Source: Bulinus truncatus (lineage: Eukaryota). Taken from it: a DNA stretch of 64,000 nucleotides. Shown piece after piece: positions 1 to 21,237 of this stretch (positions within the stretch are counted from its first letter, which is position 1; each line of letters starts with the position of its first letter). The stretch is from NCBI GenBank assembly GCA_021962125.1, contig JAGDYQ010000002.1, forward strand, positions 21,050,893 to 21,114,892, written 5' to 3'. The notes beneath the pieces are model-generated. The model saw nothing but the letters and a program-made list of their open reading frames with translations. It made no database searches and was not told where the DNA came from. Made by a program: the position numbers and the translations under genes.

Positions 1-2535
1 GTACTTGCTTCTTCAGTTGATGTTTCTGTCGTCTCCACATATGGTGCACTTGCTTCTTCAGTTGATGTTTCTGTCGTCTCCACATATGGTGCACTTGCTT
101 CTTTAGTTGATGTGTCCGTTCTCTCAATATATGGTGTACTTGCTTCTTCAGTTGATGTTTCGTTCGTCTCAACATATTGTGCACTTGCTTCTTCAGTTGA
201 TGTTTCTGTTTTCTCAATAGATGGTGTACTTGCTTCTTCAGTTGATGTTTCTGTCGTCTCCACATATGGTACACTTGCTTCTTCAGTTGATGTTTCTGTT
301 CTCTCAATAGATGGTGTACTTGCTTCTTCAGTTGATGTTTCTGTCGTCTCAATAGATGATGTACTTGCTTCTTCAGTTGATGTTTCTGTCGTCTCCACAT
401 ATGGTGCACTTGCTTCTTCAGTTGATGTTTCTGTTCTCTCAATAGATGGTGTACTTGCTTCTTCAGTTAATGTTTCTGTCGTCTCCACATATGGTGCACT
501 TGCTTCTTCAGTTGATGTTTCTGTTCTCTCAATAGATGGTGTACTTGCTTCTTCAATAGTTTTTTCTGTCGTCTCAATAGATGATGTACTTGCTTCTTCA
601 GTTGATGTTTCTGTTCTCTCAATAGATGGTGTACGTGTTTCTTCAGCTGATGTTTCTGTCGTCTCAATAGATGGTGTACTTGCTTCTTCAGTTAATGTTT
701 CTGTTCTCTCAATAGATGGTGTACTTGCTTCTTCAGTTGATGTTTCTGTTCTCTCAATAGATGGTGTACTTGCTTCTTCAGTTGATGTTTCTGTCGTCTC
801 AATAGATGGTGTACTTGCTTGTTTATTAGTTGTTGCTGTCGTCTCAATAGATGGTGCACTTGCTTCTTCAGTTGATGTTTCTGTTCTCCCAATAGATGGT
901 GTACTTGCTTCTTCAGTTGATGTTTCTGTCGTCTCAATAGATGATGTACTTGCTTCTTCAGTTGATGTTTCTGTCGTCTTCACATATGGTGCACTTGCTT
1001 CTTCAGTTGATGTTTCTGTTCTCTCAATAGATGGTGTACTTGCTTCTTCAGTTGATGTTTCGGTCGTCTCAATAGATGATGTTCTTGCTTCTTCAGTTGA
1101 TGTTTCGTTCGTCTCAACATATGGTGCACTTGCTTCTTCAGTTGATGTTTCTGTCGTCTCAATAGATGTTGTACTTGCTTCTTCAGTTGATGTTTCTGTC
1201 GTCTCAATAGATGTTGTACTTGCTTCTTCATTTGATGCTTCTGTTCTCTCAATAGATGTTGTACTTGCTTCTTCAGTTGATGTTTCTGTCGTCTCAATAG
1301 ATGTTGTACTTGCTTCTTCATTTGGTGCTTCTGTTCTCTCAATAGATGGTGTACTTGCTTCTTCGGTTGATGTTTCTGTCCTCTCAATAGATGGTGTACT
1401 TGCTTCTTCAGTTGATGTTTCCGTTCTTTCAATAGACGGTGTAATTGCTTCTTCAGTTGATGTTTCTGTTCTCTCAATATATGGTGTACTTGCTTCTTCA
1501 GTTAATGCTTCGGTCGTATCAATAGATGGTGTACTTGCTTCTTTAGTTGATGTTTCTGTTCTTTCAATAGATGGTGTATTTGCTTCTTCAGTTGATGTTT
1601 CTGTTCTCTCAATATATGGTGTACTTACTTCTTCAGTTAATGTTTCTGTCGTCTCAATAGATGGTGTACTTGTTCCTCCAGTTGATGTTTTTTTAGTTAT
1701 AGTAACGGATGTGCTTTTTTCTGCTGTTGATGTTTCTGTCGTCTCAATAGATGGTGTACTTGTTATTGTTGATGTTGCTTTTGTTGACACATGTATGTGA
1801 AGACGATTAGTTATCGTAGAGACAGACGGAGATGTAAAATATTCTGCTGAGACAGGTAACACTGCCCTCGATGCAATATTTATTGTTACAGAAGTTGTGG
1901 AAGACAGTGTGGAGACTGTTGGTGTAGATGTAGTCTGCACTGTTTCAGACAGTGTGGACACTGTTGGTGTAGATGTAGTCTGCACTGTTTCAGACAGTGT
2001 GGACACTGTTGGTGTAGATGTAGTCTGCACTGTTTCAGACTGAGTGGAGACTGTTGGTGTAGATGTAGTCTGCACTGTTTCAGACTGAGTGGAGACTGTT
2101 GGTGTAGATGTAGTCTGCACTGTTTCAGACTGAGTGGAGACTGTTATGTAGATGTAGTCTGCACTGTTTCAGACTGAGTGGAGACTGTTGGTGTAGATGT
2201 AGTCTGCACTGTTTCAGACAGTGTGGAGACTGTTGGTGTAGATGTAGTCTGCACTGTTTCAGACTGAGTGGAGACTGTTGGTGTAGATGTAGTCTGCACT
2301 GTTTCAGACTGAGTGGAGACTGTTGGTGTAGATGTAGTCTGCACTGTTTCAGACTGAGTGGAGACTGTTGGTGTAGATGTAGTCTGCACTGTTTCAGACT
2401 GAGTGGAGACTGTTGGTGTATATGCTGTTGTCAATGTTATGATAGATGTTAGGCCAGTGGTCATATAATAGTCGTCTGATGACATTTCTGTTTGAATGTT
2501 ACTTCCCGTCATAGACCCAGTGCTCCACGGTATAT
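1..2535 (-). CDS. Terminal PTS (mucin) exon that continues beyond the window start. It begins DIPWSTGSMTGSNIQTEMSSDDYYMTTGLTSIITLTTAYTP. Then come about 12 copies of the 14-aa repeat TPTVSTQSETVQTTS (42-bp units, about 1900-2410). Then come about 40 copies of the 15-aa repeat TSTEEAS(T/A)P(S/Y)(I/V)E(K/T)TE (45-bp units, 1-1800). The frame is broken by a stop and a 1-bp deletion at about 2144-2148.
   Basis: Acceptor aaaaacag|AT is in phase with the E exon. The minus frame is Ser/Thr/Pro/Glu-rich with no stops over the stretches checked. The frame with codon low-ends at coordinates divisible by 3 (mod-0 frame) below 2141 encodes the same peptide repeat as the frame offset by two (mod-2 frame) above it. 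Confidence 0.55.
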
Positions 2536-3363
2536 CTGTTTTTAAAAAAAAGATCATTCTGTACAGAGATATTTTTTTAGAAAGGATATATCATGAAATA
2601 ATAAAAATTACGATTTAAAAATTATTATTTAATAGTCAAAACCATTAACACTTAATTTACCCACAGGGTAAATTTTAAGAGGGTGCAAGGTACACTGATA
2701 GGGTCTTAGAGTAGCCACTGAGGGGTACTCAGCAGTACACTTGTCCTCATGGAGATGGCGAGAGTATTATGCACAGCCTTGTGCAAGTATCTTTGGTGGG
2801 ACTTTTTGATGGAGTGTGTCAGATGGGAATAAAGAACCTGAAGAGTTGGCCACTTCACAAAGACGCTCACAAAGCACGGCTCTTTGTACGCTTTCAAATG
2901 ATGTCTATGTATAGTGATTTATTTTTGCTTTATTGTCTTTGAAACAACGTTTTTGTTACAGGTGGGCACCTTTATTATTTTTTTTTATAAATGTCAGGAT
3001 CGCCAAAAGATAGAGGGGGTGTGCAAGTTTTACACATGCTAGAGGCCTGTGCACTTTGCGTTCCGACGGGTTGATTCATATGTTATATAGTGAATAGGCA
3101 GTGATTATGTATTTGGGATTAGAGGCGCTCCATTTGGTGGGCATGGTCAGAGGCCCAAGATTAGCGGGGGGGGGGGGGGGGGAGGGTTACCCTTGTATGC
3201 ATATTTTTAGATTTAAGTGTTAGTTTTTCTCATCTAATATGTAACTTAAATATCCAAAAAAAATCAATAATAATAATACTAAAACAAATTGCAGGATTTT
3301 AAAATCAACCTAGGTGTCAACAACAAACAAATGTCCAAACTTTCTCAAGAGGCGGCGTCTTAC

Positions 3364-3452
3364 CACACATGTCCGAGTGGACAACGTTTCCATTTCTGGA
3401 ACACCTCGGGCAGGATCTCCCATTGCACAGCAACTGACCGTTGTCACACGAG
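3364..3452 (-). CDS. Mucin-like gene, module 3 E-like Cys-rich exon (CSCDNGQLLCNGRSCPRCSRNGNVVHSDMC).
   Basis: It is a paralogous pattern to the module 2 E exon (NCQDGRLTCNEKGC..). Acceptor ttccacaag and donor G|gtaaga. Confidence 0.6.
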
Positions 3453-3614
3453 CTTGTGGAATATAAATGTACACGGCATTGACCGTAATAAAAAACAAAA
3501 GGACTAAAATAAACACAGACACGAATACAATAAAAACATAGGCTAGAGTAGGGTTGGCGCATTTTGTGAGGGCCGCATTGGTTTTTAAATTTGACTTAAG
3601 GGCCGGACGATGAT

Positions 3615-3830
3615 GAGATGGGATGGGACAGTGACGTCGCGAGCTTTACTCGCGCCCGGGGCACAATACCTTTTAATACCTTTTTTAGCGCCCCCCCCAT
3701 TCAAAAGCCATATAATATTCTATGTAAAATATATCATACGGCGCCCCTTTGTGAGTAGCGCCCGGAGTTTGATGCCCCCCTTGCCCACCCCTCACCACGC
3801 CTCTGGGGTGGGTCGTTAATATGAAGTAAT
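3615..3830. mobile_element. Short palindromic interspersed repeat family B, copy 1 (gcgagctttactcgcgcccggggcacaatacc ... ggcgcccctttgtgagtagcgcccgg).
   Basis: Homologous to 28655-28835 and 53865-54030. The inverted arms are built around a ccccgggcgc core and flank an AT-rich loop (catataatattatatg). Confidence 0.65.
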
Positions 3831-4019
3831 ATAAATGAAGCTCTTTGGTGTCGGCGTGAGTGAACAGCACAGACAGGATGGAACAGCGGAACAGCTGTAG
3901 TTGGCCCAAGTGTGGGTCCGAAAAAAGCACTTGGATGGACATAAATAATACTAACAATGAATTTACACACAAGCGTGAAAGAAATCAAGAATAGCAGTTA
4001 AATTACCCAATGAAATTCA

Positions 4020-4195
4020 ATACACAAAAATGCATGAATTAATGCACCAACATGAACTAAAGGGCAAGCATGAGCTAAAGTGAAAGCATTAATTAATGCG
4101 CAAACATGAACTAATGCACAAACATAAGCTAATGCGTAAGCATGTACTAATGCATAAACATGAACTAATGAGCAAGGGTGGGATGATAACAACAA
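4020..4195. repeat. Degenerate tandem repeat based on a (c)atgaactaatgc(a/g)caa(a/g)c unit.
   Basis: Visible periodicity. Confidence 0.7.
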
Positions 4196-4340
4196 CATTA
4201 TAAAAATAAGCTAATAATAAAAAGAATATTTAATTAGAAACAAACATGGAATAATGCAAAGTAACATGCATTAATCATATAAACATAGAACAATAAACAA
4301 CGAAGGGAAACAATTAACAATACCATAACCATCAACATAC

Positions 4341-4434
4341 CAATGTGAGCAGTCCACTGGGGGCATTGACCCAGTCTGAGTTAGTCTCGTGACGTCATAG
4401 CAAGCGCAGTCACTCTGGGGTATACAGTTGGATC
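4341..4434 (-). CDS. Mucin-like gene, module 3 TIL exon b (GSNCIPQSDCACYDVTRLTQTGSMPPVDCSH).
   Basis: It supplies the CI....C.C...tail..DC..(W/C) portion seen at the end of the single-exon TILs of modules 1 and 2. Acceptor cttcttag and donor TG|gtatgt. Phase 1 in and phase 2 out exactly bridge its neighbours. Confidence 0.6.
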
Positions 4435-5799
4435 CTAAGAAGTGATAAATAATTTAACCTTTCACAATATGAAAGATTATCTCCTAGACATCTGTCATAT
4501 TACATTTAACAGAAAATATCTACGTATAATGATAGATGGAAATTTCTGAATGTTTGTCTGTTGAAACATCAAATAAAATAAAACAACCCAACTAAATCAC
4601 TATTTTTGTTTCTTGACTAGACAATATTGCTAAAAAATAGACCACTTTCGGGGACAAGGTGTAATAAGTGCGCCTGGTCATTCTCAGAAACAATCATTTA
4701 TCCAATGGCGTAATGAATTTTTTTTCGAACATTTTTAAGAATTTCTTCTTTATGAAGAATTTTTCGATTTAATTATTGAGAAAAACTATTACTTATTACA
4801 TCTAAAACTATTTATTTAAAAAAAAATAATTAAAGAGCAATAAGAGCTGGAGATTATTTCTACACAACAGGTAGGTGTCGTGAATTGGCACCCATTTCTG
4901 TACCTCAACTAGACGACTAATAATATAGGGCAGTGGGGGTCGAACCTATGCCCCAGTTGGCACGCAGAACCCCATCAGTCGGCACGCGACTAACATATCA
5001 TTTCCTTTAATTTTAGCACCTTATTATAAATAAGTGGCTTTTACGGTTGAATTTCGGGGCAAGTGGTCCCAAAAAGTTTAGCCACCTCTGATAGAAGGTA
5101 TACGCATTAAAAAAAAAGTTTCATGTGTCACTTTAAGTGACACATAGGACTTCCCGCGCAACTCAGCTAGCGTTTAATATGACATCAAATATTGTATATA
5201 AGTTGTAAAGAAATGTGAATTATTCAAATTATTATGGGTACACAGCTAGCGTTTAATATGACATCAAATATTGTATATAAGTTGTAAAGAAATGTAAATT
5301 ATTCAAATAAACCTAACTTAATGAATTATATTTATATACAAGAATACATGAGTTTATAATTTATGAATATTATATGTCACAGATTGACTGTGTGTGCGTG
5401 TGTGTGTGCGTGTGTGTGTGTGTGTGCAGGGGAGAGCACCAGCGTGTAACTGGAGACTGAGTGGTGCGTCGCGTGTCTGTGTGTGTAGTTAACGTTCAGT
5501 TGTTGGAACGAAAAGTCGTGTGATACACCTGGTATGCGAGATCGTGCGAATATAGTGTCATTGGTACATCGTATTCAAGTGGTCGATTAAAGATTTTAGT
5601 ATTTCATCTCAAAATTGGAGTCGGTGTTTTGTGTGTCACCTAAGATGTTGTGTTGTTATTTCTAATTACCCTAGATATAAGGTGCAAATGATAATGACTA
5701 GATGATAAAATGAGTCACATGGATATGGACAGTATATGACTTCATGACCTATAACTGCATAACACCCAGTTACATGTTATGGGTCTCACCGTTCCAGAC

Positions 5800-5938
5800 G
5801 AGGTCACTGGGGCAGAAGCACCCCTCCACGTCCAGAGTCCTGCGGCAGCTGGTCACGTTACGGGCCAAGTCAGCGCATGTCCGGTGGCAGGGTGACCCTT
5901 TAGCCTGGTACACCATACCCCCCTCACACTGGACAGCT
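5800..5938 (-). CDS. Mucin-like gene, module 3 TIL exon a (PVQCEGGMVYQAKGSPCHRTCADLARNVTSCRRTLDVEGCFCPSDLVWNG).
   Basis: The N-terminal two-thirds of the TIL Cys pattern is present. Acceptor ccccacag and donor G|gtgaga. An in-frame stop follows if read through. Confidence 0.65.
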
Positions 5939-5974
5939 GTGGGGGGGGGGGGAACAAATTTTCATTACGTAGTA

Positions 5975-6250
5975 AAGAGATGTAAGAAGTTAAAAAGGAA
6001 TCAGTAAAGAGATGTAAGAAGATAAAAAGGAATCAGTAAAGAGATGTAAGAAGTTAAAAAGGAATCAGTAAAGAGACGTAAGAAGTTAAAAAGGAATCAG
6101 AAAAGAGATGTAAGAAGTTAAAAAGAAATCAGTAAAGAGATGTAAGAAGTTAAAAAGGAATCAGTAAAGAGATGTAAGAAGTTAAAAAGGAATCAGTAAA
6201 GAGATGTAAGAAGTTAAAAAGGAATCCGTAAAGAGATGTAAGAAGTTAAA
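5975..6250. repeat. Minisatellite of about 9 copies of a 31-bp unit (cagtaaagagatgtaagaagttaaaaaggaat), intronic.
   Basis: Direct tandem copies are visible. Confidence 0.9.
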
Positions 6251-6886
6251 AAAAAAGGATTTACTACCAGTGCTTTTTTTTTGTGACGGTACGCACCGGT
6301 ACGGCGTACCGGCACCTTTTTCAATGTGTGGGGGGGGGGGATTATTACTTTTTTTTGTATATTAACGTTTATTATTAATTTATTATATTATTAATTTGTT
6401 AAAATTGAATTATTTTAAAATTGTGCGCAATAAGAACTAAACTAGACGCTGGGTTTTAGTTAAAATTTAGGCAATCAATCCATCACTGAGTACTGTGAGT
6501 ACAAGCACCTATTTTTTTTTTTTTGTACAAAAAAAAAAGCACTGTTTACTAGTAATGTTTTTCACCTATTAAAAATTGTTTTTTTTTTTTAAAATTTAGT
6601 GTGTGTCTAACGAAAGTTTTAATGTGTTGAAACGAAGATTTATAAATATGTGTACAGCATTAGAGAAATGAAGAAATGTTGAAGCAGTGAAATAAAGTGT
6701 AGCACCGTTAAATCTTGATAAACTGAATGTGTATTTTTTTTTTTATAAACAAACGAATGAATAAACAAACAAACAATCAACTCTTCGATTACTTACATGC
6801 GTGGCCACACAAACACCCCTGGTATATATTTAATTTATCGATTAAGATGGGGGGGAAGGAAGGGGAGGGGTGTGGGACAATATAGT

Positions 6887-7005
6887 CCAACTTACGGCAA
6901 AGTTGCTGACGTCTCCATTTTGTGGGAAAACCCACAGCAGCGCAGGAGGAAGCGAAGAAAGCAATGGAGTCACACAGGCACTCGCAGTCACCACCCCTAT
7001 CACAG
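6887..7005 (-). CDS. Mucin-like gene, module 3 C8 exon b (SCDRGGDCECLCDSIAFFASSCAAVGFPTKWRRQQLC).
   Basis: The C8 signature C..GGDCEC.C......A..C...G....WR....C is present. Acceptor ttattccag and donor C|gtaagt. Confidence 0.65.
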
Positions 7006-7024
7006 CTGGAATAACGTAATGTTT

Positions 7025-7290
7025 GATTGTGTAGGTATAAGTTGATGATTGTGTAGATAGATGCATGTTGATGATTGTGTAGATATAAGTTGATGATTCT
7101 GCAGAAATAATTTGATGATTGTGTAGATATAAGTTGATGATTGTGTAGATATAAGTTGACTATTCTGCAGATATAATTTGATGATTGTGTAGATATAAGT
7201 TGAAGATTCTGCAGAAATAATTTGATCATTGTGTAGATATAAGTTGATGATTGTATAGATATAAGTTGAGGATTGTGTAGATATAAGTTG
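7025..7290. repeat. Minisatellite of roughly 30-bp units (ttgatgattgtgtagatataag), intronic.
   Basis: Direct tandem copies. Confidence 0.85.
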
Positions 7291-7374
7291 ATGGTTGAAT
7301 AACGAGCAGTTCTTACGATTCTTGGGGGGGGGGGGGTTCTTCATGTTAAGAAAAGGAAGGGGAGTAGTCACTCA

Positions 7375-7515
7375 CCTGCAAGCATTCTCCTTACAGTCAC
7401 TGAAGAACCGATTGATGTTCGCCTGGGGCATAGCACGCCGGCACGACTGGAATGTTTCGGAGGTCGTGATGACACCACACCTGGAGTTGGCCCACGTGGC
7501 TCTCTCAGAATGTTT
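7375..7515 (-). CDS. Mucin-like gene, module 3 C8 exon a (KHSERATWANSRCGVITTSETFQSCRRAMPQANINRFFSDCKENAC).
   Basis: The C8 N-terminal half is present. An in-frame TAG lies immediately upstream of the acceptor tctag. Donor AG|gtgagt. Confidence 0.6.
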
Positions 7516-7980
7516 CTAGACTCGTTGAAAAAAAATATAAATTGTGAGAAGTTCCCGATGTTAAGGGAATTAAGGTAAACAAAAGGTGTCACATAGACTA
7601 ATTATATGACATTTCATGTAATTAGTTGACATTTAAAGTAATAAAATCACATTGGAATCAATGTGATGCCTTTTAAAACCTAAATGAAATAAGGTTAACA
7701 TTTAAACCAATACAATAACATTTAAACCAATACAATAAGATATACACTTTTGTGAAGCCATTTAAGCTAATAGGATAACCTTTAAACCCACCAGTAGATA
7801 TTAATGCTAAGATGACATTTAAACTAATGAATTGATGTTTACACTTGTGTGATGTAGATGAAACTGCTTTGTATATTTGATATTTTTCTAATAAAATTGT
7901 CTCGCAAAAAATCAAATCAAACGTTTACATCAAACTTAAAAAAAAAAAAAACTTTGGTGAGTTTTAATATTCCACATACT

Positions 7981-8158
7981 TGACATGGAGGAGTCGATAA
8001 GTCGAAGTCGGAGTCGGAGCAAGTGGCTCCATCCTCGATCCATGACGTCACAAAGCTCCGGATGTTGCTGTCCAGTGAGTGGTCGGGCCTGACCAGGTCG
8101 TTGATGGAGTTGTTGTCGTAGTTCCCGCACAGACCTTCCAGCTTCTTGAACCATCGGT
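7981..8158 (-). CDS. Mucin-like gene, module 3 vWD exon c (DRWFKKLEGLCGNYDNNSINDLVRPDHSLDSNIRSFVTSWIEDGATCSDSDFDLSTPPCQ).
   Basis: The motif GLCGNYDNN..ND is followed by F..SW......C. Acceptor caagtgtcag and donor CAA|gtatgt. Confidence 0.7.
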
Positions 8159-8733
8159 CTGACACTTGAATTCTGGTGAAGAGACCTTCAGAAACACAAC
8201 AGCAAAGAATGAGTTAAGCCCACAGTTCTCAACCGGTGATGCGAGTACCCCCGAAGGGTATGGGAATCGTTATGCACGAGGTACGCAGCGACATATATAG
8301 TTTGCATTAAAAATAAACCCAGAGCTTGAAGGTTGCTAGTTTGGTGCATGACCCGCGGACATACTTTCGGACCCTTTGGGCAGGGCCGCTTTATCATATA
8401 GGCACAGTAGGCACTGTGCTTAGGGCCTACGGACTTTTCAAGGGCCTACGAAAGCCAGAATGGCAAATAAGTGCCGGTGCATTCTTGAAAAATATTAAAA
8501 AATGTAATCGGGGAGGGCAGATCCGATTTTTTCATGTTTGTATTTTTAACTGGAATACTGTTGTATTAATTCTTTAATTTCGATTTAACGCAGAACCCAT
8601 ATCTCTTTTATTTTATTAGATTATTTACATATATAATTCTTTTTTTTTCTTTTGGTTTTTATATAGATTGTGCATATTGTAAGTCTAATTTCGATCAGAA
8701 ACCAATGATGATGACAAACTCAGAATCTCCTAC

Positions 8734-8961
8734 CTCCTGTCCAGTACACAGAAATATCTTCAAAAGAGACCACCGTGTACAGAGTGGACGAGAAGACTCG
8801 AAAATTTCCTAGTTCTGGACTCTGGTCAGCGAAGTACGTCCTGTTGCCCGCCACAACCCCCAGTTCCTTGTTCAACTGTATGTTCTGGTCCTTGTACTGG
8901 ATGTCGATCTGGTGGGAGCAGGATGACCCCGTTGACCCACAGGCCCAGTTCTTGACACTGA
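8734..8961 (-). CDS. Mucin-like gene, module 3 vWD exon b (VSVKNWACGSTGSSCSHQIDIQYKDQNIQLNKELGVVAGNRTYFADQSPELGNFRVFSSTLYTVVSFEDISVYWTG).
   Basis: The vWD core has the paired Cys and a VNG-like segment. Acceptor gacgcag and donor G|gtagga. Confidence 0.6.
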
Positions 8962-9804
8962 CCTGCGTCCAACATTAATCAGTGTCATAAAACTTAAATA
9001 TTTGCGTGCATTTATAACTGTCGTAGATATATTTGTGTTTTTGTTGAACTTTTCACGTGTTGTGTGTGATCGTGAAGAGTGAGTGGGTGACAGGTCAGAA
9101 GTAAAAAGATAAGGTGATTGGCTGAGGTGGTCAGATGACAAGGGGTGGACCATGATGTCGAAAGTGGAAGGATGATGACGGTGGAGTTGCTGGAGAGATA
9201 TGATACTTAGTGGTGGATTACGCTGTGTTGATGGATTCTTTTTATTATTATTAGTAGTAGTACTGTTATAGGTATAACAAATGTTGACCATGTATCTCTC
9301 GTTGACTAAATGTGTGAGTGAATGGTGGCAAGCACTGGACATGACAGTTTAAAGTTATGACGAAATAACTATATCTTTTTTGTTGACTTTTGTCTTTAAA
9401 GGTAAACACAATCAATTAGTATTGTCAGCGTACATGGTATACTATTATGGTATATTCCAGAGTTATTAGTATGGATAAACTAGGCGAAACCAGGGGTGAT
9501 CATTTCAATATGTGGGCCACATTAGGTTCTTAAGTTTGAAAGTAAGAGTTAGGTAAATTGGTTGAGTGTTTGTATATACATTAATATAAACTGAACGTTA
9601 AAGTAATAGATGTAAGCAAGAGAAAAAGAGAATTGCATGGCACGGATCAACATCAAACAGCGTGTCGGGCCGTATATCCCGTGGGTCCTAGTTCGCCCAT
9701 GTCTGGGCTAGGGTAAGAGGACCCCCTGGCAGTGCTAATTTGTGCCATATCTAATAACATAAAGTCGTGTACTCGCGATTAGCTAAATTTTGCTTATATT
9801 CTTT

Positions 9805-10650
9805 TTTTTTTAGAGCATTTTCGAAAAAAAATGCTCTATTGTCCCCGTTTTGTCTGTCTGTCCGTCTGTCCGTCATCACCCTAGATCTCAACAACCATAA
9901 GTCCTAGACCCATGATGTATATATCATTTTGTAGGTCTTGGCCTGCCAGGAAATGACTTTTTTCCATTTCGCGATCGACCTCTCAGGGCCGTAAAAGGGG
10001 CCTTAGTACCGTTTTTTACTATATAAGCTATATTAATAAAGAGCGCCTATATCTCAACAACCATAAGTCCTAGACCCATGATGTATATATCATTTTGTAG
10101 GTCTTGGCCTGCCAAGTGTACATCAAAAGTTTATTTCGCGATAGGACCTCTGAGGGCCGGGCTTCAGGGCTCCTAAGGGGCTTATATATTATATATACAC
10201 CTTGTACGTTCAATAACCCGTTCATTTGGTGCGAAATACTGCAGCACGTAGTTTCACCAAGATTTATTAAGAAACTCATCAAATGAAATAGTAAGCTTGT
10301 GTTCTGAGTTTAATTGAAAGTATCAGAGCTATGCAACAATTGACGGAGATTTCGGACGATTAAATGACTACAATTTCGAATGTTTTCAATTATGAGTCCT
10401 ATTTCAGTAACCACAAACCACTTGTAGTTAGATTTAAGAGAAAATAATTTTTCTTTTCAAATATAAAGAAACGTCTTTATAATATTTTTTTTTCAGATAT
10501 ATGCATTACACAATTGAATTTATAAACATTTCCAAAATTTACAAATATTTACTTAAAGCTAACAAACGTACTGATACATAACATGAAAATGCGCTAACAC
10601 ATCCTGTGTCCAGAATGGAACAGGCTTAATTGCTTGTTTTTACTCATTTC
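9805..10650 (+). mobile_element. Interspersed repeat of about 845 bp, family A, copy 1, in the intron between the module 3 vWD exons a and b. It begins with the palindrome agagcattttcgaaaaaaaatgctct followed by (gtct)n, and contains an internal 65-bp direct duplication.
   Basis: It aligns end to end at about 90 percent identity with 38135-38975 and partly with 63095-63450. Confidence 0.75.
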
Positions 10651-10904
10651 TGTATATTGAATAACTCTAAAATATTCATAAGATCATCAGGTCTTCACAG
10701 GCAGACACCAGAGCCGTCAATTAGAGGCATTTCCTAGCCTCCCCCCCCCCCATCACCAGACAACATCTGTACCAGGGACATCAGTAACCTTATGACGGCT
10801 CCATTGTAACCATTTCTCAGAAATGAAAAAAGTAAAATCACAGTCTGAATGGAAGTCACAGTCACAAAGTCCCACAGGTGGACGTACTAACTGTCCCACT
10901 CACC

Positions 10905-11025
10905 TTGACGTAGGCATCGTATCCGCTTGACTTCATCAGTGTGTACGGGCAGTGACCAAAGAAGCTTAGGCTGCTACCATCAAAGGTCACAACTCGCATC
11001 AATGTCCCCAATATGTAGCACGAGG
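10905..11025 (-). CDS. Mucin-like gene, module 3 vWD exon a (ASCYILGTLMRVVTFDGSSLSFFGHCPYTLMKSSGYDAYVK).
   Basis: The vWD start signature C.....TFDG..F.F.G.C.Y.L is present. Acceptor ttcccatag and donor AAG|gtgagt. Confidence 0.7.
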
Positions 11026-11689
11026 CTATGGGAATAGAGCGAGACACGAGTTTTGTCCATTTTTAAAGTAAGACCAAGCCACAAAATATGTCAGTGTCTG
11101 TCAGGTAAATGTGTCAATGTTAGGTCAAGTGACGGACACATTAGTCAATGTAACATCAAGTGATGTGCGCATCACACTGTTAAATCAGATGATGGACACA
11201 TTTGTCAGTATTAAATCAGGTCATGGACACATTTGTCAATGTTGTCAACTGAAACATGCCAAGTGAGACTTAAACTACGTCAATGTTTTGTCATGTCAGT
11301 CAATATTTTTCTTTTCTACTCTATTTCAAATGAGCGAGACACAGATAAAGACAAAAAGACTCTTCTTGCACATGTTCAAATATCCCACCTAGACAGTCTG
11401 GCGTTCTCTCGATCTTCTGCCACTGGCTGTTGTTACATCGGCTGTAGACAAACGCGGAAATTGTGGTGAAAATACATTTTCAATGAATTAAAAGAGTGTA
11501 AATCTTGTGTTGCCATGGCGAAATCGTTTTATTCTAATATACTATATTAACTGTTTTTTAATCATTTTGATTTTAAACATAACTTGGCCATGCAATTTAT
11601 TTTTCATCAACACACTTAATTTGGCATCTGTTATATTCAGCGACATACATTTCTTTCCATTCAGTTTATATAACACTTGTTGAGCCTGT

Positions 11690-11880
11690 TATATTTCATG
11701 TACTTACTTAATGTTACACCTGACTGTTATATTTCATGTACTTACTTAATGTTACACCTGATTGTTATATTTCATGTACTTACTTAATGTTACACCTGAC
11801 TGTTATATTTCATGTATGTACTTAATGTTACACCTGACTGTTATATTTCATGTACTTACTTAATGTTACACCTGACTGTT
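11690..11880. repeat. Tandem repeat of roughly 43-bp units (ctgttatatttcatgtacttacttaatgttacacctga), about 4.5 copies.
   Basis: Direct tandem copies. Confidence 0.85.
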
Positions 11881-12229
11881 ATGTAAGATCCATGGTCGTG
11901 CCAAACGTCGTTATAAAAACATGGACACATGCCAGTTGGAACACAGAGACCCTCCTGGAAACAATTAGTTTGAAATATATCTTTTTAAAATTCAGGCGAT
12001 GAAATAAACAACGAAACAATAGCAGATATCAGTTAAACATCAATATTTCGCTGACGCTTAAATGTTTTTTTTTTGCTTTGTGAAATAAGCAATAACAACA
12101 AAAGTGTATCTATTGTGAAAAACAGACTCACACACAAACGTGCGCTCACAGTCATACATACACACGTACAGGCACATACATATGCAGAAAAATACAAAGA
12201 TGCAAATACACAGATGCAAAACATGCAGC

Positions 12230-12605
12230 CATAAACACCTAGCCAGAAACGCACAGACAGAAACAACCAGACACAAACACCCACACACAAATGCCCAGAC
12301 ACAAACACCCACACACAAATGCCCAGACACAAACACCCGGACACAAACGCCCAGACACAAACACCCGGACACAAACGCCCATACACAAACAACCAGACAC
12401 AAACACCCAGACATAAACAACCAGACACAAACACCCGGACACAAATCCCCGGACACAAACACGCAGACACAAACCCCCAGACACAAACACCCGAACACAA
12501 ACCCCCAGACACAAACCCCCAGACACAAACAACCAGACACAAACACCCGAACACAAACACCCAGACACAAACAACCAGACACAAACACCCAGACACAGAC
12601 ATCTG
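12230..12605. repeat. Minisatellite of about 18 copies of a 21-bp unit (acacaaacacccagacacaaa).
   Basis: Direct tandem copies. This explains the overlapping ORFs at 12033-12696 on both strands. Confidence 0.9.
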
Positions 12606-12987
12606 CACACCAAAGACACACATATTCAATAATTCTTTTCTACAAAAAATGAACACTTTACATTTGTTGAAAAAAAATAACCAAGAATTTCGCTAAGAGA
12701 AACCAAGCGATCAATCATAGCCAAGAAAGACGTCTCGTCACCCATTCCACAAATCTATCGACTTATCCAGTAAATTTTTGGCTATAAACTTACACCTTCG
12801 GAGTCATGCTAATGCAAGATCTGGAAGTAGGGACTTTTTAAGACAGAGACACATAACAAATCACCCTCTCCCATCGGGTCCCCAAACCACACTCTCCACT
12901 TATGTCCGTTGACATTTCCCATATGTAAAGGTCATTAGTACATAATTTGATAAAAAAAAAACAACTAATATGTTGTCGGGTACTTAC

Positions 12988-13201
12988 AGTAGTCTCAACG
13001 AAACCTGATCTGCAGACACACTTTCTGTCCGTGGGCGGGTCATTGAGGCATGTCACGCTGCTGCCCGTTTTGTCTGGGCACCTGTACCGGGCGCAGGCCC
13101 CGGGGCCGGGTCGACTGTATGTATAGACTGTCTGATTGGCTGGGCAGACGATCTCCTCACAGCCCTTCTCATTACAAGTCAAGCGTCCATCTTGACAGTT
13201 G
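12988..13201 (-). CDS. Mucin-like gene, module 2 E-like Cys-rich exon (CNCQDGRLTCNEKGCEEIVCPANQTVYTYSRPGPGACARYRCPDKTGSSVTCLNDPPTDRKCVCRSGFVETT).
   Basis: Acceptor ttttgtccag and donor G|gtaagt. The C.DG.L.C....C pattern follows the TIL domain, as in vWF D-assemblies. Confidence 0.65.
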
Positions 13202-13708
13202 CTGGACAAAAGTGCATTCGTTAAAACACCATCAGACATTCGCTTGTGTTCATAGAATTAGTAGTACATTACATGAGAATCTCAAGAGTGCAGTCATACA
13301 ACATAGACACAAGTAGGATGATACAGGGTGTATTCAGTCAATCGTGACATACACGAGAACAATTATACAAGATAGACATGAGTAAAGGCATACAGTATAG
13401 ACATGACTACAAGCAGAAAAGATAGACATATTTACAAGCATACATCATAAACATGAGTACAATTAAACAAGATGAAACAAATATACAAATTTAAGATTAC
13501 CATGACTAGCATCATACAATACAGTCATACAACTGAATGGATGCTTTCCAAAATAAATCGATAAGTTCCAACCCTCTCAAGAATCAATTAGTGTAGGCTA
13601 CCCAGTTTGTATCTACACCCAAACAAACCCCAGTTTGTATCTACACCCAAACAGAGCCCCAGCTTGTATCCACACCAAAACAGAGCCCCAGTTTGTATCC
13701 ACACCCAC

Positions 13709-13958
13709 CAATGAAAACAGGAATCATTCACGAATGGGCCAGGACTGATGTATCTCCCTGACTTGGCGTCGAGACAAGGGCACTGGTCGCGGTGTATGCA
13801 GCGCCCGTCTTGATTAAGAAGTCTGCCGCCCCGGCAAGAGCACCCTGGGATCGTCTTGTCTGTGAACATCCGGGCGCCTAGCTGCAGATCGAGACAATGT
13901 GTCTGCCATACGCGTACACGGTCATTCTGTTCCAGATCACCGGAGCATGTCATCATAT
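13709..13958 (-). CDS. Mucin-like gene, module 2 TIL exon (MMTCSGDLEQNDRVRVWQTHCLDLQLGARMFTDKTIPGCSCRGGRLLNQDGRCIHRDQCPCLDAKSGRYISPGPFVNDSCFH).
   Basis: The TIL Cys pattern is present with the same CPC..SG.Y.SP...V.DSC..W tail as module 1. Acceptor tctattacag and donor TG|gtgggt. Confidence 0.7.
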
Positions 13959-14039
13959 CTGTAATAGAATCGGGCATAGTATAGACCATTTAACATGGAA
14001 AATACATGGAGTGCTAGGTCTTGTGTCTTGACACGGTCT

Positions 14040-14265
14040 ACCTACGTAATCATGGGTCTATACATGCCACTACATGGTGTTTACCAGCCAGGCCCGAGCG
14101 TGCGGGGGAAGGGGGCAGGAGGCCGGGCCCATCCTGCGATTTGTCTGCCCCCCCCCCTGCTTTTTTGTTCTACTTAGTAAAATTTATTACCTGCCCCCCC
14201 TCCCGCTATTGTCTGGCCCCTGCTGTAGAATTTTCACGCTACGGGCTCTGAAACAGCGGTTCTCA
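14040..14265. mobile_element. Interspersed repeat family C, copy 1 (..gcccgagcgtgcggggg..tgcttttttgttctacttagtaaaatttattacctgccccccctcccgctattgtctggcccctgctgtagaattttcacgctacggg).
   Basis: Homologous to 40690-40815 and 53175-53365. G/C homopolymers are embedded. Confidence 0.65.
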
Positions 14266-14830
14266 AGCTGATGCGGAGATATGTCCTTGGGTACCCCTTG
14301 CACGTACTTTCGCGAACAAATGTCCTTTTTATTCAAAGTGGAATGTGTTTTACTTTTATGATGCGATACATGATCACGTGGCTGGTTTATGAATAACGCA
14401 GCAAACTGGCTATCAAACTCATGCTATTTTAAAAAGAACGTTATGTCATTGTGTAATTCTGCGCAATCTTTCCAGTACCCTTGGGTTAAGCTTACCACCG
14501 GTTCAGAACCTCGGGTGTATACATTGGCTGGTTATGTGTCTTAAATATGTCAGAAGAACCGGTCCTGTAGCGGATGGATGGAGTGTTTATAGACGAACAA
14601 ACGAAATGCAATGTACAAGTCATTGATTTGAACAAAAGAAGAAGACCAAAACGCGAGCTTTAATTTGTCCATGTCTGGTCTAGCTGCTTACTGATCAGCC
14701 TTGACTCTCTCAAAAGAAAAAAAAATACAACTCGGGGTTGAAAAGCATCGGTCTAAATTTTAATATGAATAACCAAGGGTCAATGCTTTTTATGATGTCT
14801 TAACACATCCACAATGTAAACAAAACTCAC

Positions 14831-15037
14831 CTTTAACCTCTGGAAGCTTCACGAAACCGTTTATCTGACTGTACAAGTAGCTCAGCGGCACCTGTGACAC
14901 GTGAGAAATTTTCAGGATTGTGGACTGGATGACCTTGAGGTCTCTGCTGGCGAAGGCTATCTTGTCCAGGTTAGTGACGGACACTCTAGTCGGTTGTATG
15001 TCGTCTATGTAGTAATTCAGATCCGGTACTTGAATCT
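14831..15037 (-). CDS. Mucin-like gene, module 2 Cys-free linker exon (IQVPDLNYYIDDIQPTRVSVTNLDKIAFASRDLKVIQSTILKISHVSQVPLSYLYSQINGFVKLPEVK). It sits where modules 1 and 3 carry C8 exons.
   Basis: Acceptor cgcacag and donor G|gtgagt. The entry and exit phases match the neighbouring exons. The open frame is partly inflated by the adjacent minisatellite. Confidence 0.45.
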
Positions 15038-15089
15038 GTGCGTCGCAAATGAAAAAAATAGGTATCAGTAGCATTAAGTCAATAAAGTT

Positions 15090-15300
15090 TGTGTGAGCAG
15101 GTACCTTCTTGAGTGTTGCATTGCTGAGTATTGCATTCTTGAGTGTTGCATTGCTGAGTATTGCATTCTTTAGTGTTGCACTGCTGAGTAATGTATTCTT
15201 GAGTGTTGCATTGATGAGTATCGCATTCTTGTTGCACTGCTGAGTATTGCATTCTTTAGTGTTGCGCTGCTGAGTAATGTATTCTTGAGTGTTGCACTGC
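15090..15300. repeat. Minisatellite of 30-bp units (gagtgttgcattgctgagtattgcattctt).
   Basis: Direct tandem copies. Confidence 0.85.
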
Positions 15301-15480
15301 TGAATGAATCTTGTGGCAATGATAAAATATAAATGTATTTTAACTGCTCCATTTTTGAGATGAATTGTTAATTTCAATTTAGTTAAAAAAAAACAGCAAC
15401 ACCAGAAAGAAAGCGGTTCTCAATCCAATGGAAAGTTCGGCCGGCCGAACCGTTTAAGTGTATCAAGTTATATAAATCAC

Positions 15481-15648
15481 CTTGGTTTGTACTGCACCGC
15501 CGTAATCCACACGGCCGTAGCCAGAATGACCACAGGAGTTCACCGTGTAGGCCTGTATGAAGCTCTCGTCAGACGGGGCTTCAATGCCTGAAGGGAGGCA
15601 CCGGTCATCGTCAATCTGTTTGTTCATGTTGCCACACAGACCCCGTAG
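15481..15648 (-). CDS. Mucin-like gene, module 2 vWD exon c (LRGLCGNMNKQIDDDRCLPSGIEAPSDESFIQAYTVNSCGHSGYGRVDYGGAVQTK).
   Basis: The diagnostic vWD motif GLCGN(M/F)N...DD is present. Acceptor gagtccag and donor AAG|gtgatt. Confidence 0.7.
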
Positions 15649-16319
15649 CTGGACTCAAGGATAATCGAGATACAACGATATGTTAATGAGATAACAGAAA
15701 ATGATAAAGGCAATGTCATCATCAAGTACATGGCAGGTCAAAGGAAAAACAAAATGGACAAGACATTCTGGGGCTATAGTTGGGATGAAAGAAGGACGCC
15801 CTTAAAACCGTCACATTAAATAAACATGTCCGAGGAAAAAGACAGTCTAGAGAAATGAAAAAATAAATAAAAGAAAAAGAATAAACAAAGCAAAGTAAGC
15901 CTATTTGAAGATGCGACAGAAGCTGTTATAGTTTGAAGTGACTATCTAATTCATGAAACCTGGTGTTTTATCGAGTAGGGTTATTTGTGTGTATGTGTGT
16001 GAGTGAGAAGAGGAGAAAGTCTATTTTGTGTATGTGAGAGGGAGAAAGAAGACGGGGGGGGGACGATTTGGTGAATGCTTGCGTGCCGTCTCCAACTAAA
16101 CTTTGATAGGTGCCCTCTTGAACCAATTAATCTCCTTTAGGGGGCTCTAGATGTCGCCACTCTCGCCCATGAACCCTCCCCCTTTTTTTCACTATGCTAC
16201 CCTGTGAGTCTGTAATCGTGTTTATCTGTACGTTCAAACCTGTATATTTATCTCATGTGAGCTTTGAATTTTAAAAAAATAGGTTACCAGTTGTACCAGT
16301 AGTGAATTGCTCTAAAAGC

Positions 16320-16600
16320 TAAGATGAACGAAAACCACCAACAATACAACAACAATAAACAAAAATACAACAACAATAAACAACAATAAACAACAATACA
16401 ACAACAAACAACAACAATACAACAACAATAAAAAACAAACAACAACAAAACAACAAAACAACAACAATACAAGAACAAACAACAACAACACAACAACAAC
16501 GCAACAACAAACAACAACAATAAAACAACAAACAACAACAATACAACAAAAATACAACAACAAACAACAACAACAAAATACAACAACAATACAACATTTC
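16320..16600. repeat. CAA-rich low-complexity minisatellite ((caa)n with interspersed t/a), intronic.
   Basis: Seen directly. It explains the C/L/V-rich ORFs at 16284-16638. Confidence 0.9.
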
Positions 16601-16709
16601 ATTAGAACAAAAAAGGTCAACTTACTGGTCCAGGCCAAGGCAACAAATTACAACTTAAACGTAAGAAAATCCCAGATGTGGCTGGTCTATATCAGTAATC
16701 AACTTAAAA

Positions 16710-17030
16710 CCAACTCACCGTGCCAGGCTCGTAGAACGAGTCCCATGTCGCCACCACCAAGTAATTCACATTGAAGAGTAAAATCCGGAAGTTGAAAGCA
16801 TCTATTGCGACACTGGACGTGGTCGGCTGCCGGACGTAAAGGACGCTGTCAGAGTAAGGCATCTGCACGCTCTGATTCTTTTTAAGGTCTAGGACCTCTG
16901 GTTGTCGATCAGTCTTGAACTTGACAATCAAATGGACCTTATCGGCCCTGATTTCAACGCCCCCGGGTAAGATGTTGGCGGGGTTATCCGGGGATTGCTT
17001 TGAAATCATATTGATTACCAAACCGTTTGT
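16710..17030 (-). CDS. Mucin-like gene, module 2 vWD exon b (QTNGLVINMISKQSPDNPANILPGGVEIRADKVHLIVKFKTDRQPEVLDLKKNQSVQMPYSDSVLYVRQPTTSSVAIDAFNFRILLFNVNYLVVATWDSFYEPGT).
   Basis: A 107-codon open exon with acceptor tgtttccag and donor ACG|gtgagt, phase 0 at both ends. It is a Cys-poor vWD core. Confidence 0.6.
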
Positions 17031-17205
17031 CTGGAAACATGAAAGTCAATTCGTTAAGCTTGAAAAAAAAATATAAGTAATTATTTGTGTTTGGTCACAA
17101 ATAAAAAAAAAGATAATAAAAACGTAGAATCTAATGACTACATACTGTCCAGGCTACATACTGTCCACTTTAATCCAAACAACAAACAACAAAAGCCACA
17201 CTCAC

Positions 17206-17365
17206 GGGATGGGTGACCAGAGTAAAGGAACACTCTACTTCATCTGACGTCAGCAGAAATTCCTGTTTGTCAAACGTGGTCAGCGCCCCTGGGCCGTACA
17301 CGGAGCAAGAGGCGTAACAGTTGTAGGACACCGAGCAGTTCCACACTCCCCTGATCCCACATGTG
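17206..17365 (-). CDS. Mucin-like gene, module 2 vWD exon a (CTCGIRGVWNCSVSYNCYASCSVYGPGALTTFDKQEFLLTSDEVECSFTLVTHP).
   Basis: The vWD N-terminal signature C..YG....TFD...F.......C.F.L is present. Acceptor ccctatcag and donor CCC|gtgagt. Confidence 0.65.
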
Positions 17366-17458
17366 CTGATAGGGCAAATATTAAACATAGGGGTATACTT
17401 ATAAGAAACATGGGAAGCCCTGATGAGTGGTGAGGAAGGATGTCAGAATTTTTGTAAT

Positions 17459-17565
17459 AAATTCAGCTGATTAATAAATTCAGCTGATTAACAAATTCAG
17501 CCGATTAATAAATTCAGCTGATTAATAAATTCAGCTGATTAATACATTCAGCTCGATATCCTACA
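17459..17565. repeat. Tandem repeat of 17-bp units (ttaataaattcagctga), about 6 copies.
   Basis: Direct tandem copies. Confidence 0.85.
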
Positions 17566-17926
17566 AGGAAATGTGATTTTTTTAAATTGTCAAAAATCTA
17601 TTTATAGATGTTCATTTTTTACCGACTTTACCCGTTGCCACAATTTTATATAGTATGCGGGGATTTGCGGGCGAAGTCGCGTCGTAAACATAGCGTTAAA
17701 ATTGAGTGGTGATTGGGGTGGGGGGGGGGGTGTGCTGGACACGTTTCGTCAAAATATAAATATTTTTTTTAAAATCAAATTTTGTTGATTTCTCTCCTAA
17801 AAAAAAAAGAGATGCATATATTTTTTGTAAAAGTTTCCAAATCCATCTTCTCAATAATCTAAACGGCATACAATTTAAGAATAATAAAATAAAAAAAATC
17901 CAAGTTAGAGAGAAACCTTTACTGAC

Positions 17927-18175
17927 CAATTTTGACAGGTATCGTGAACGTAGACAGACTCGTTTGGGCTGTACGACAGGCCGTTCAGGGAGCAGGGACA
18001 CTGGCTGGGGTCGATGCAGGTCCTGTTGTAGTTCACCAGACCGCCTGGGCAGTGACAGCCCGCCACGCAGGAGCGGCACTCCGACTGGATGTTGCCGGTC
18101 AGCGTGGGGCGACCGCAGGCCGGGCGGCAGGAGGGCCCGCAGTCTCGATACACAAAGTTGGAAGGGCAGGTCCTG
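17927..18175 (-). CDS. Mucin-like gene, module 1 TIL (trypsin-inhibitor-like) domain exon (RTCPSNFVYRDCGPSCRPACGRP..CRSCVAGCHCPGGLVNYNRTCIDPSQCPCSLNGLSYSPNESVYVHDTCQNW).
   Basis: The canonical 10-Cys TIL spacing is present (CP.N..Y..C...C...C.....C..C..GC.CP.G.V....CI....CPC). Acceptor tttttttaag and donor TG|gtcagt. Confidence 0.75.
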
Positions 18176-18499
18176 CCTTAAAAAAAAATACATCGCATTG
18201 TTGATAAAATAAAATATTGATTGTAAAAGAAAATATTAATGTTGGAATATTATATTGATGTTGGGATGAAATATTGATGTTGGGATAAAATATTGATTGC
18301 TTAAAATATTGATGTTTGGATAACATATTGTTAATAAAGTGGATAGAAATATTGAGGATGAAATTAAATTGAGATGGAAACTTCAAAGTATCGTTCAATG
18401 TACGGCACAACTTCAGTATTGTCAGTAGGTGTTTTTTTAACTTGTGATAAATTAAGTGGTGATCAGTGTGTGAGTTCTTTTTCTAATGTATTTCTGTCA

Positions 18500-18645
18500 A
18501 GACGGTGATTGTGTCAATATAGGTGATTGTGTCTAGACGGTGATTGTGTCAAGACGGTGATTGTGTCAATATAGGTGATTGTGTCAAGACGGTGATTGTG
18601 TCAAGACGGTGATTGTGTCAAGGCGGTGATTGTGCCATGTCTCAT
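18500..18645. repeat. Tandem repeat of gtgattgtgtcaagacg units (17 or 27 bp).
   Basis: Direct tandem copies. Confidence 0.85.
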
Positions 18646-18675
18646 TATTATATATTTTATTTTTGTTTCATTCAC

Positions 18676-18831
18676 CGCATCCGGATTCCTCTCTCCATTT
18701 GATTTGAATTTTCTCATTCAGGCATGCGCCAGAGTATCCGCTGATGACATGACATCTCATGTCATTCTCGGCGCTGACAGAGGCTGAGCAGTAGATCTGC
18801 TGGCAGTACTTGACATAAGGCCTGACATCCA
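18676..18831 (-). CDS. Mucin-like gene, module 1 C8-domain exon b (VDVRPYVKYCQQIYCSASVSAENDMRCHVISGYSGACLNEKIQIKWREESGC).
   Basis: The C8 pattern V.P..Y..C...C.....C....YS.AC......W is present. Acceptor cacctcag and donor G|gtgaat. Confidence 0.6.
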
Positions 18832-19059
18832 CCTGAGGTGAATTATTATCCAATAAAGCCATTACTGATAAAAGTAAAAAGTTAAAACCAAACTCTATAA
18901 CTGTTAATTCTTTACTGTTTAACACTTCGCGTTAACTCCCGTTTATCCCCCCTCCCTTTTCTAACACCCCCTCCCCCTCTTCACAATAATGGAACATGCA
19001 GCATTTTCCGTCTTCAGGTGAACAACAAAAGAAATAAATTAAGAACGAATGGGCCAAGA

Positions 19060-19315
19060 CTGGGTCAGGACTATGTCAGAACTGGGTCAGAACTAGGTCA
19101 GAACAGGTCAGGATTAGGTCAGGACTGAGTCAGGACTAGGTCAGAACTAGGTCAGGACTGGGTCATGACTGGGTGAGGACTAGGTTAGGACTAGGTCAGG
19201 ACTGAGTCAGGACTAGGTCAGGACAGGTCAGGACTGGGTCAGGACTAGGTCAGAACTAGGTCAGGACTGAGTCAGGACTAGGTCAGGACAGGTCAGGACT
19301 GGGTCAGGACAAATT
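19060..19315. repeat. Minisatellite of about 25 copies of a 9-10 bp unit (ggtcaggact).
   Basis: Direct tandem copies. Confidence 0.9.
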
Positions 19316-19439
19316 TGTTGTCAGTATGCAATACGAGCCATATCTGTGATGAAGTTGTTTGATTTTGTTAATCTAAGAAAATAATTTGCAGGGGGCCCAT
19401 ATTAGTTTACTTGTAAACTAGGGCCAGTTGACTGAATGA

Positions 19440-19900
19440 TACATTCGCCACTTATACTTCTTCTTCTTCTTCTTCTTCTATCCCTTAACCCGTGGATGGG
19501 TCGTTGGGGCACCGTTGTTGACTGAAACTAGTAGTTTTTCAGTCATGGTGTATCTAGGGCAGGAAATGCTTGGCGGCGCCCAACCCTCTCCAAGCTTGAC
19601 CACAGCCGGTTTCCTCCTTATCGGTGGCCCGCCTTGATCACGGACACGTAGCCGTTGGGTTCACATTTGATCTCGTCCGCCCTGGCCGGTGACTTCAATT
19701 CGGAAGTTCATACGCCCAGTGGTGTCGTGTCAGCACCACCTCCTCACGCGGTTTAGCCGGTCAGCTGAGACCGTTGCCCAGAGTGTGGCGCGGGGAGCCA
19801 CACATGAGAGATTCAAGAGATGAGCGAGGACCAGTGAGCTTGACCACCCGAGGGTGCAGCTGTCAGAGCATCAAAGGTACTACCTCTGCCCAGAGCCCTC
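19440..19900. other. GC-rich, non-repetitive island of about 460 bp, unlike the flanking AT-rich sequence. It is possibly a truncated retroelement or captured fragment.
   Basis: Base composition shifts sharply between two minisatellites. It starts after (ctt)n, and only a 62-aa + ORF falls inside it. Confidence 0.3.
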
Positions 19901-19984
19901 TATACACCACTTATACTACAGCGAGACAATATGTTTATCTTAAAATGCCTATTGTCAATTAAAATAAAATAAGCAGAGGCCCAT

Positions 19985-20170
19985 TTGTTACACTTATCCC
20001 AGGCAGATGTCTTGCTATAATTACACAGACATTTGTACACTTATCCCAGGCAGATGTCTAGCTTTAATTATGCAGACATTTGTAACTTATCCCAGGCAGA
20101 TGTCTTGCTATAATTATGCAGACATTTGTCACTTATCCCAGGTAGATGTCTTGCTATAATTACACAGACA
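19985..20170. repeat. Tandem repeat of roughly 42-bp units (acttatcccaggcagatgtcttgctataattacacagacatttgt), 4 copies.
   Basis: Direct tandem copies. Confidence 0.85.
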
Positions 20171-20305
20171 TTTGTCTGTGAGTCTAATTGAACATGTACA
20201 AACACGTTGATTAATGTTAAAACAGATAACTGTTACTGATTTTTTTTTACAGTAGACAGACAAATGTCTTGATCTATTTACCGTTGATATACATATGATA
20301 TCTGT

Positions 20306-20410
20306 ACTATTTACCTTAGAGTGACAGGGACTAAATAGACCTGAAGATAGAATGGAGCAAGCTGAGTCCGCATCAGATGGCGTATCGCAAGGCTGATTGA
20401 CCTGATTACA
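20306..20410 (-). CDS. Mucin-like gene, module 1 C8-domain exon a (CNQVNQPCDTPSDADSACSILSSGLFSPCHSK).
   Basis: The C8 N-terminal pattern C..SAC..L...F..CH. is present. Donor AAG|gtaaat. Phase is 0 at both ends. Confidence 0.6.
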
Positions 20411-21089: not shown

Positions 21090-21148
21090 TGTTGGTGATG
21101 CTATGGTAGCATTCACGAAGTATTTCTGCAGCACAGAGCTGTAGTTAT
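21090..21148 (-). CDS. Mucin-like gene, module 1 short exon (DNYSSVLQKYFVNATIASPT).
   Basis: Acceptor ttatcag and donor ACA|gtaagt. It is in phase on both sides. Confidence 0.45.

Positions 21149-21206: not shown

Positions 21207-21237
<31 letters not shown>

Follow-up and report, generated by a model that had tools for sequence, protein, structure and literature searches.

The 64,000-nucleotide stretch of Bulinus truncatus DNA analyzed here (the window; assembly GCA_021962125.1, contig JAGDYQ010000002.1, positions 21,050,893 to 21,114,892 of the forward strand) carries on its minus strand a mucin-like gene in which three VWD-C8-TIL (D) assemblies, D1 to D3, are followed by a serine-, threonine- and proline-rich (PTS) exon made largely of tandem repeats. 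A single unit of the first repeat array of this exon (array A) contains a stop codon and a frameshift. This combined lesion is quite probably a residual Nanopore consensus error that was shielded by the repeat from polishing. The lesion is one variant in one assembly, and chance was gauged by its uniqueness within the array.

The plus strand at 2137-2157 reads GAGACTGTTATGTAGATGTAG, taken directly from the window. The regular form, ...CTGTTGGTGTAGATGTAG, is found in 10 other units of the array (starts 1916, 1961, 2006, 2051, 2096, 2185, 2230, 2275, 2320 and 2365), and a search of the 64-kb window for the variant 21-mer gave a single occurrence, even with 2 mismatches permitted. The difference consists of GG replaced by A on the plus strand, with the A at 2146, which is CC to T on the coding strand. 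The initial annotation had described a 1-bp deletion; one base is indeed removed, as the unit is 44 bp long, but the change comprises two edits, a substitution and a 1-bp loss, and is no clean deletion. On the coding strand ACA CCA ACA GTC becomes ACA TAA CAG TC, and the TAA that the same annotation had placed on the minus strand was found both in the sequence and in the open reading frame list, where a frame spanning 2144..2557 ends at this codon.

The repeat unit of array A is 45 bp (15 codons, 15 amino acids), and its copies are nearly identical at the DNA level. A unit of 42 bp, as first proposed, is incorrect, since Tandem Repeats Finder (TRF) gave a period of 45 and the aberrant unit measures 44 bp. 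This 44-bp unit is the sole one in array A that is not 45 bp long and is otherwise identical to the commonest unit type. The lesion is thus a length change in a single unit of an otherwise regular coding tandem repeat, and the reading frame switches at that point.

The frame upstream of the lesion (codon starts at 1 mod 3) is open from the start of the exon to the TAA. Below the lesion the same peptide, TPTVSTQSETVQTTS, is encoded in a frame with codon starts at 2 mod 3 and its lowest base at 0 mod 3, so that translation agreed with the mod-0 frame given by the initial annotation. Across the 713 codons that reach to the window edge, this post-lesion frame contains no stop, whereas the other two minus-strand frames contain 11 and 75. 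The units on either side of the lesion do not differ from each other, and the downstream units are base for base the same as the upstream ones. The identity of the flanking units together with the 713-codon open frame indicates that any real mutation would be extremely recent.

The B. truncatus assembly was produced from approximately 10x Oxford Nanopore R9.4.1 reads of two snails using Flye (--nano-raw) and medaka, polished by Pilon with a 150-bp Illumina library of 500-bp inserts, scaffolded by Hi-C and then purged of haplotigs with purge_haplotigs (PMC8861042). The published assembly therefore combines low-depth, error-prone long reads with short-read polishing, the setting expected for an unpolished-error artefact. 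In a December 2025 paper on Bulinus ugandae, GCA_021962125.1 is the sole B. truncatus assembly cited, and is described as derived from multiple individuals and mixed read types. Polishers including Pilon use a single best placement for each read; when reads prefer an error-free copy of a repeat, the erroneous copy is left uncovered (Wick & Holt 2022, PMC8812927).

The behavior of short reads at the lesion was analyzed by restoring the regular unit in silico and placing all 149 possible 150-bp reads covering the site under BWA-MEM default scoring. Of the simulated reads, 67/149 matched another part of the assembled array perfectly. Shielding by perfect matches alone was therefore rejected as a full account, which requires scoring with 1-2 mismatches. 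Under such scoring, 147/149 reads could be placed without gaps, with 0-2 mismatches, at a distance of 89-224 bp, and scored higher there than in the gapped placement at the true site, indicating that correct reads align better to other copies than to the erroneous unit. We infer that shifts of 89-224 bp fit the distribution of the 500-bp inserts. Since nearly all of these reads prefer neighboring units, short-read polishing would be unable to repair a Nanopore consensus error at this position.

We propose that the Nanopore consensus may have miscalled one unit of array A, reading TTGGTG as TTATG. Correct short reads from this unit would then have aligned better to the neighboring error-free units, leaving the miscalled unit uncovered and hence unrepaired by Pilon. 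We infer that the true unit at the lesion site is regular, CTGTTGGTGTAG. Nothing else disrupts the approximately 6.7 kb of coding sequence that the window contains, and the lesion lies within the 523 bp of near-identical units. The second array of the exon (array B) is more diverged (86%), so that its reads are placeable, and its 1776 bp are free of indels; compared with a Lymnaea relative, the D1-D3 exons are free of internal stops and frame changes. Medaka at ~10x depth, with a quality of ~Q23-Q30, would be expected to leave 0.5-3 unpolished errors in 523 bp, a general estimate and no measurement on this assembly; a real disabling mutation in this particular stretch has a far smaller prior. 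The initial annotation had offered an assembly error, a truncating allele and a gene losing its mucin tail without choosing among them; the assembly method, the shielding and the intact gene on both sides of the lesion favor the first of these. If so, the real gene has one continuous S/T/P-rich tail of at least ~845 residues after the three VWD-C8-TIL assemblies.

Four points, in addition to those given below in favor of a real allele, weigh against a consensus error. If the window stemmed from a high-accuracy long-read assembly, an error would have a much lower prior. The regular unit at the lesion position is presumed rather than observed. The change lies outside a homopolymer, takes two edits and is no classic Nanopore homopolymer-length error. 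Finally, 150-bp reads carrying the variant all map uniquely in the window, and because of this a real variant would also survive polishing; shielding explains the persistence of the lesion and does not discriminate between the readings.

The strongest competitor, to which we assign a low though appreciable probability, is a genuine and very recent truncating allele in which CC changed to T in one unit of a variable number tandem repeat (VNTR). The protein would then end after six and a half repeats and lose at least 713 tail residues, together with anything beyond the window, and any introns downstream might expose the transcript to nonsense-mediated decay. In B. truncatus, a selfing polyploid with redundant gene copies, an allele of this kind could be tolerated or reach fixation. 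The variant is unique in the assembled sequence, so variant-bearing short reads would have supported it. The species is regarded as tetraploid (PMC8861042), and redundancy of this kind would be expected to relax selection. Real single-unit frameshifts are also known in coding mucin VNTRs such as that of MUC1 (PMC5843638, PMC10338300).

The composition of array B also bears on this point. Differences among its units are mostly non-synonymous: 32/39 variant types change the amino acid and 7 are synonymous, where 95 and 34, respectively, are possible. Synonymous changes in array B are thus not in excess over non-synonymous ones, and the tail may be under weak sequence constraint. No stops were observed among the 39 distinct variant types, where ~1.7 would be expected (P(0) ~0.18, which is weak alone).

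On the other hand, a real allele needs two adjacent edits in one event, and the prior is small for a hit in these 523 bp, the very stretch in which assembly errors persist. No further lesion lies on either side, and no independent sequence carrying the variant was found, the protein searches and exact-protein look-ups having returned nothing from the same species. In its further-reaching form, which we consider slightly less probable again, a real lesion would have become fixed in this laboratory strain of a selfing polyploid and would be the first to disable an unannotated mucin-like D-assembly gene, seen at the onset of pseudogenization or tail loss after genome duplication, with no second mutation accumulated yet.

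That the gene is an established pseudogene, or has a mucin tail in long-term decay with the sequence downstream of 2144 untranslated and drifting, is very unlikely. A stop codon and a frameshift do lie in a coding exon, the gene is without a counterpart in the annotated protein set, and the LDLa modules of its Lymnaea relative are missing. However, an old pseudogene should show several disabling lesions or decay of the frame, and only a single lesion was found. The absence of stops from the 713 codons of the post-lesion frame, when the other two frames hold 11 and 75, the lack of indels in the 1776 bp of array B and the identity of the units on both sides of the lesion are all contrary to drift, and the mapped D1-D3 exons are open and colinear with those of the relative. 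The suggestion of a gene losing its mucin tail over the long term is therefore unsupported, as units identical to the upstream ones continue downstream of one isolated lesion.

Less likely still is a real lesion that is bypassed by a cryptic intron (exitron) removing the TAA and restoring the frame, so that the full tail is made. Although 142 GT...AG pairs of 30-600 nucleotides would remove the stop, restore the frame and create no new stop, the only donors are ACA/GTGCAG and ACA/GTCTCC, which fit GTRAGT poorly and have no preceding AG, the acceptors are without a real polypyrimidine tract, and the same sites occur in every unit, with nothing directing splicing to unit 7. An alternative genetic code with TAA as a sense codon was rejected, since the frame also shifts and codon reassignment cannot rescue it.

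A residual consensus error at this site would resemble the cases analyzed by Wick & Holt (PMC8812927), in which a noisy long-read assembly was polished with short reads and a lesion lies in one repeat copy (the mechanism of their Fig 1A). Their genomes were bacterial and the errors mostly of homopolymer length, whereas here the setting is a eukaryotic coding minisatellite, the change has two edits and the error itself is deduced. Autosomal dominant tubulointerstitial kidney disease due to MUC1 (ADTKD-MUC1) offers a second parallel, a single-base length change in one unit of a near-identical coding mucin-type repeat (PMC5843638, PMC10338300). Short reads miss both the MUC1 change and the Bulinus lesion or leave them ambiguous, and both call for long reads or k-mer genotyping. 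The MUC1 alleles, however, were verified in patients, have a base inserted in a C-run and yield a long toxic frameshift protein, whereas the putative Bulinus allele gives an immediate TAA and lies in a snail gene that, the PTS concept aside, has no relation to MUC1.

If the lesion is an error, it marks a spot where the B. truncatus reference breaks a long mucin-like gene, a break that may or may not underlie the missing annotation described below. Near-identical coding minisatellites in Nanopore-plus-Pilon assemblies would then keep consensus errors that resemble nonsense or frameshift alleles, and such artefacts will accumulate in surveys of these assemblies for "truncated" mucin genes. If the lesion is real, it is an ordinary loss-of-function allele of a rapidly evolving secreted glycoprotein in a schistosome vector snail, of modest interest and only if the protein matters for mucus or parasite interaction. 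Neither an error nor an allele would surprise a specialist.

The features of the gene around the lesion are listed in Table 1. That the lesion lies in the PTS repeat exon of a mucin-like gene coded on the minus strand, as stated in the initial annotation, was supported by the S/T/P content, the repeat arrays and the upstream VWD-C8-TIL assemblies. A central PTS domain built from tandem repeats, as in mucins, is present in the form of two 45-bp coding arrays. S+T+P make up 59.5% of the tail before the lesion and 51.5% after it, and Cys is absent. A non-repetitive lead-in, D IPWSTGSMTGSNIQTEMSSDDYYMTTGLTSIITLTTAY, precedes array A. Array B, which extends beyond the window start, stays open in the post-lesion frame, its 37 in-register units being without stops. 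These units alternate among a few recurrent subtypes, e.g. STPSIERTETSTEEA, STPSIETTETSTEEA and SAPYVETTETSTEEA, which suggests a higher-order repeat structure.

Table 1. Positions in the window of the features of the D-assembly and PTS gene. A slash marks the exon-intron boundary.
Feature	Position	Strand	Evidence
Upstream exons: EGF-like N-terminus and three VWD-C8-TIL (D) assemblies	3364..26685	-	Pfam; tblastn
Last Cys-rich exon (…CDNGQLLCNGRSCPRCSRNGNVVHSDMC)	3362..3511	-	phase-1 donor TGTGTG/GTAAGA, GT at 3363-3362
PTS exon start	2425..2537	-	3' acceptor ttttttttaaaaacag/AT, AG at 2537-2536, first exon base 2535
Array A: 45-bp coding tandem repeat encoding TPTVSTQSETVQTTS	1902..2424	-	TRF period 45, 11.6 copies, 97% matches
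Aberrant 44-bp unit, number 7 of 12 in coding order	2109..2152	-	2123-2166 in TRF/plus-strand phase
In-frame TAA stop codon	2144..2146	-	GG->A; ten other units ACA CCA ACA G, here ACA TAA CAG
Linker between arrays, non-repetitive, S/T-rich (…LSSTTSVTINIASRAVLPVSAEYFTSPSVSTITNRLHIHVSTKATS…)	1777..1901	-	shares the post-lesion frame
Array B: second 45-bp coding repeat, STPSIE[T/R]TETSTEEA, ~39.5 copies	1..1776	-	TRF 86% matches, 0% indels

The donor phase of the last Cys-rich exon matches that of the PTS-exon acceptor, giving the junction ...HSDMC-D-IPWSTG... Pfam searches of the exons between ~26.7 and 3.4 kb detected VWD (6e-24, 7e-9), C8 (2e-12, 4e-12) and TIL (~2e-7, three times), with VWD and C8 each matched in two assemblies and TIL in all three; one further TIL match was weak and partial. 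The VWD of D1 had no Pfam match in the rough exon concatenation and was aligned by tblastn (24103-23933, 22665-22504) to D1 of CAL1533122.1, a protein of Lymnaea stagnalis. The gene thus has the VWF-type N-terminal arrangement of VWD-C8-TIL assemblies D1, D2 and D3.

An exhaustive HMMER search of 1.8 billion representative proteins returned 1443 relatives, the closest being the same CAL1533122.1 (38% identity), an unnamed, partial protein of 2016 residues. Its EGF-like modules are followed by three VWD with C8 and TIL, by four LDLa and by a repeat tail rich in S/T/P. By tblastn, its residues 28-1419 align colinearly with positions 26685 to 3392 of the window, the last high-scoring segment pair (3511-3392) corresponding to residues 1380-1419, and none of the segment pairs against the window contained an internal stop or a frame change. 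Judged from these alignments, the gene looks otherwise intact apart from the single lesion.

The four LDLa of CAL1533122.1 (residues ~1415-1600) had no counterpart in the window by tblastn. Such counterparts would fall in the intron (2535-3364) that separates the last Cys-rich exon from the PTS exon. Their absence may reflect either domain loss or a paralogous relationship between the Bulinus and Lymnaea genes. LDLa modules following the D assemblies, as expected of a SCO-spondin-like protein, were accordingly absent, and the PTS exon is joined in phase directly to the exon whose end is at 3364.

Other relatives carry in their source the names mucin-2-like, mucin-5AC-like, SCO-spondin-like, IgGFc-binding protein-like and hemocytin. 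The gene resembles gel-forming mucins and D-assembly glycoproteins (MUC2/5AC, SCO-spondin, FCGBP, hemocytin) in having three VWD-C8-TIL assemblies followed by long S/T/P-rich repeats; on the other hand, the named D-assembly proteins show only 26-32% identity to it. The C-terminal VWC and CTCK that define gel-forming mucins would, if present in the Bulinus gene, lie outside the window, as its 3' part runs off the window start.

A protein search with D3 and the start of the PTS region revealed no same-species copy of the gene (best match 36% identity), and a search with the post-lesion tail gave no matches in the protein collection. Exact-protein look-ups of the predicted protein P0007 and of the 137-amino-acid open reading frame ending at the TAA found neither on record. 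Since no near-identical protein was found, though other Btru_ proteins are present in the collection, the D1-D3 and PTS gene (1-26700, minus strand) appears to be missing from the published annotation. The B. truncatus genome papers make no mention of mucins or of this locus.

The window also contains, on the minus strand at 39400-57500, a vesicular monoamine transporter gene (SLC18/VMAT) of approximately 13 exons. All aligned residues (413/413) of these exons are identical to the NCBI hypothetical protein Btru_028335 [Bulinus truncatus], including the poorly conserved luminal loop and the intron-derived C-terminus of that model, which identifies the species of the window as B. truncatus; the next matches are from Biomphalaria glabrata (86%) and Physella acuta (79%). 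The Btru_028335 protein (476 amino acids) ends ...GFHWQVLQ, reading into the intron after exon 40250-40414. The likely true last exon, MLWIIAIVNLIYAPLLYFLRNPPAKEEKM, lies at ~39.5-39.6 kb and matches residues 471-499 of the Physella acuta VMAT at 27/29 positions. The deposited Btru_028335 model therefore seems to be truncated at its C-terminus.

Several repeats are dispersed through the window. Three minus-strand copies of one element (~63100-63530, ~38090-38550 and ~9750-10310), whose translations share SEVRSRN.LLMYTWQAKTYKMIYTSWV and GDDGQTDRQTDRQN, probably represent a short interspersed nuclear element (SINE) or other transposable element family. Long tetranucleotide-type microsatellites at 22700-23130 and 39657-40004 translate on the plus strand as (LSIY)n. 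Minisatellites were found at 4033-4175 (18 bp), 5971-6252 (32 bp x 8.8, 96% matches), 7024-7297 (22 bp x 12.3) and 12030-12700, and a purine-rich tract extends over 60200-60930.

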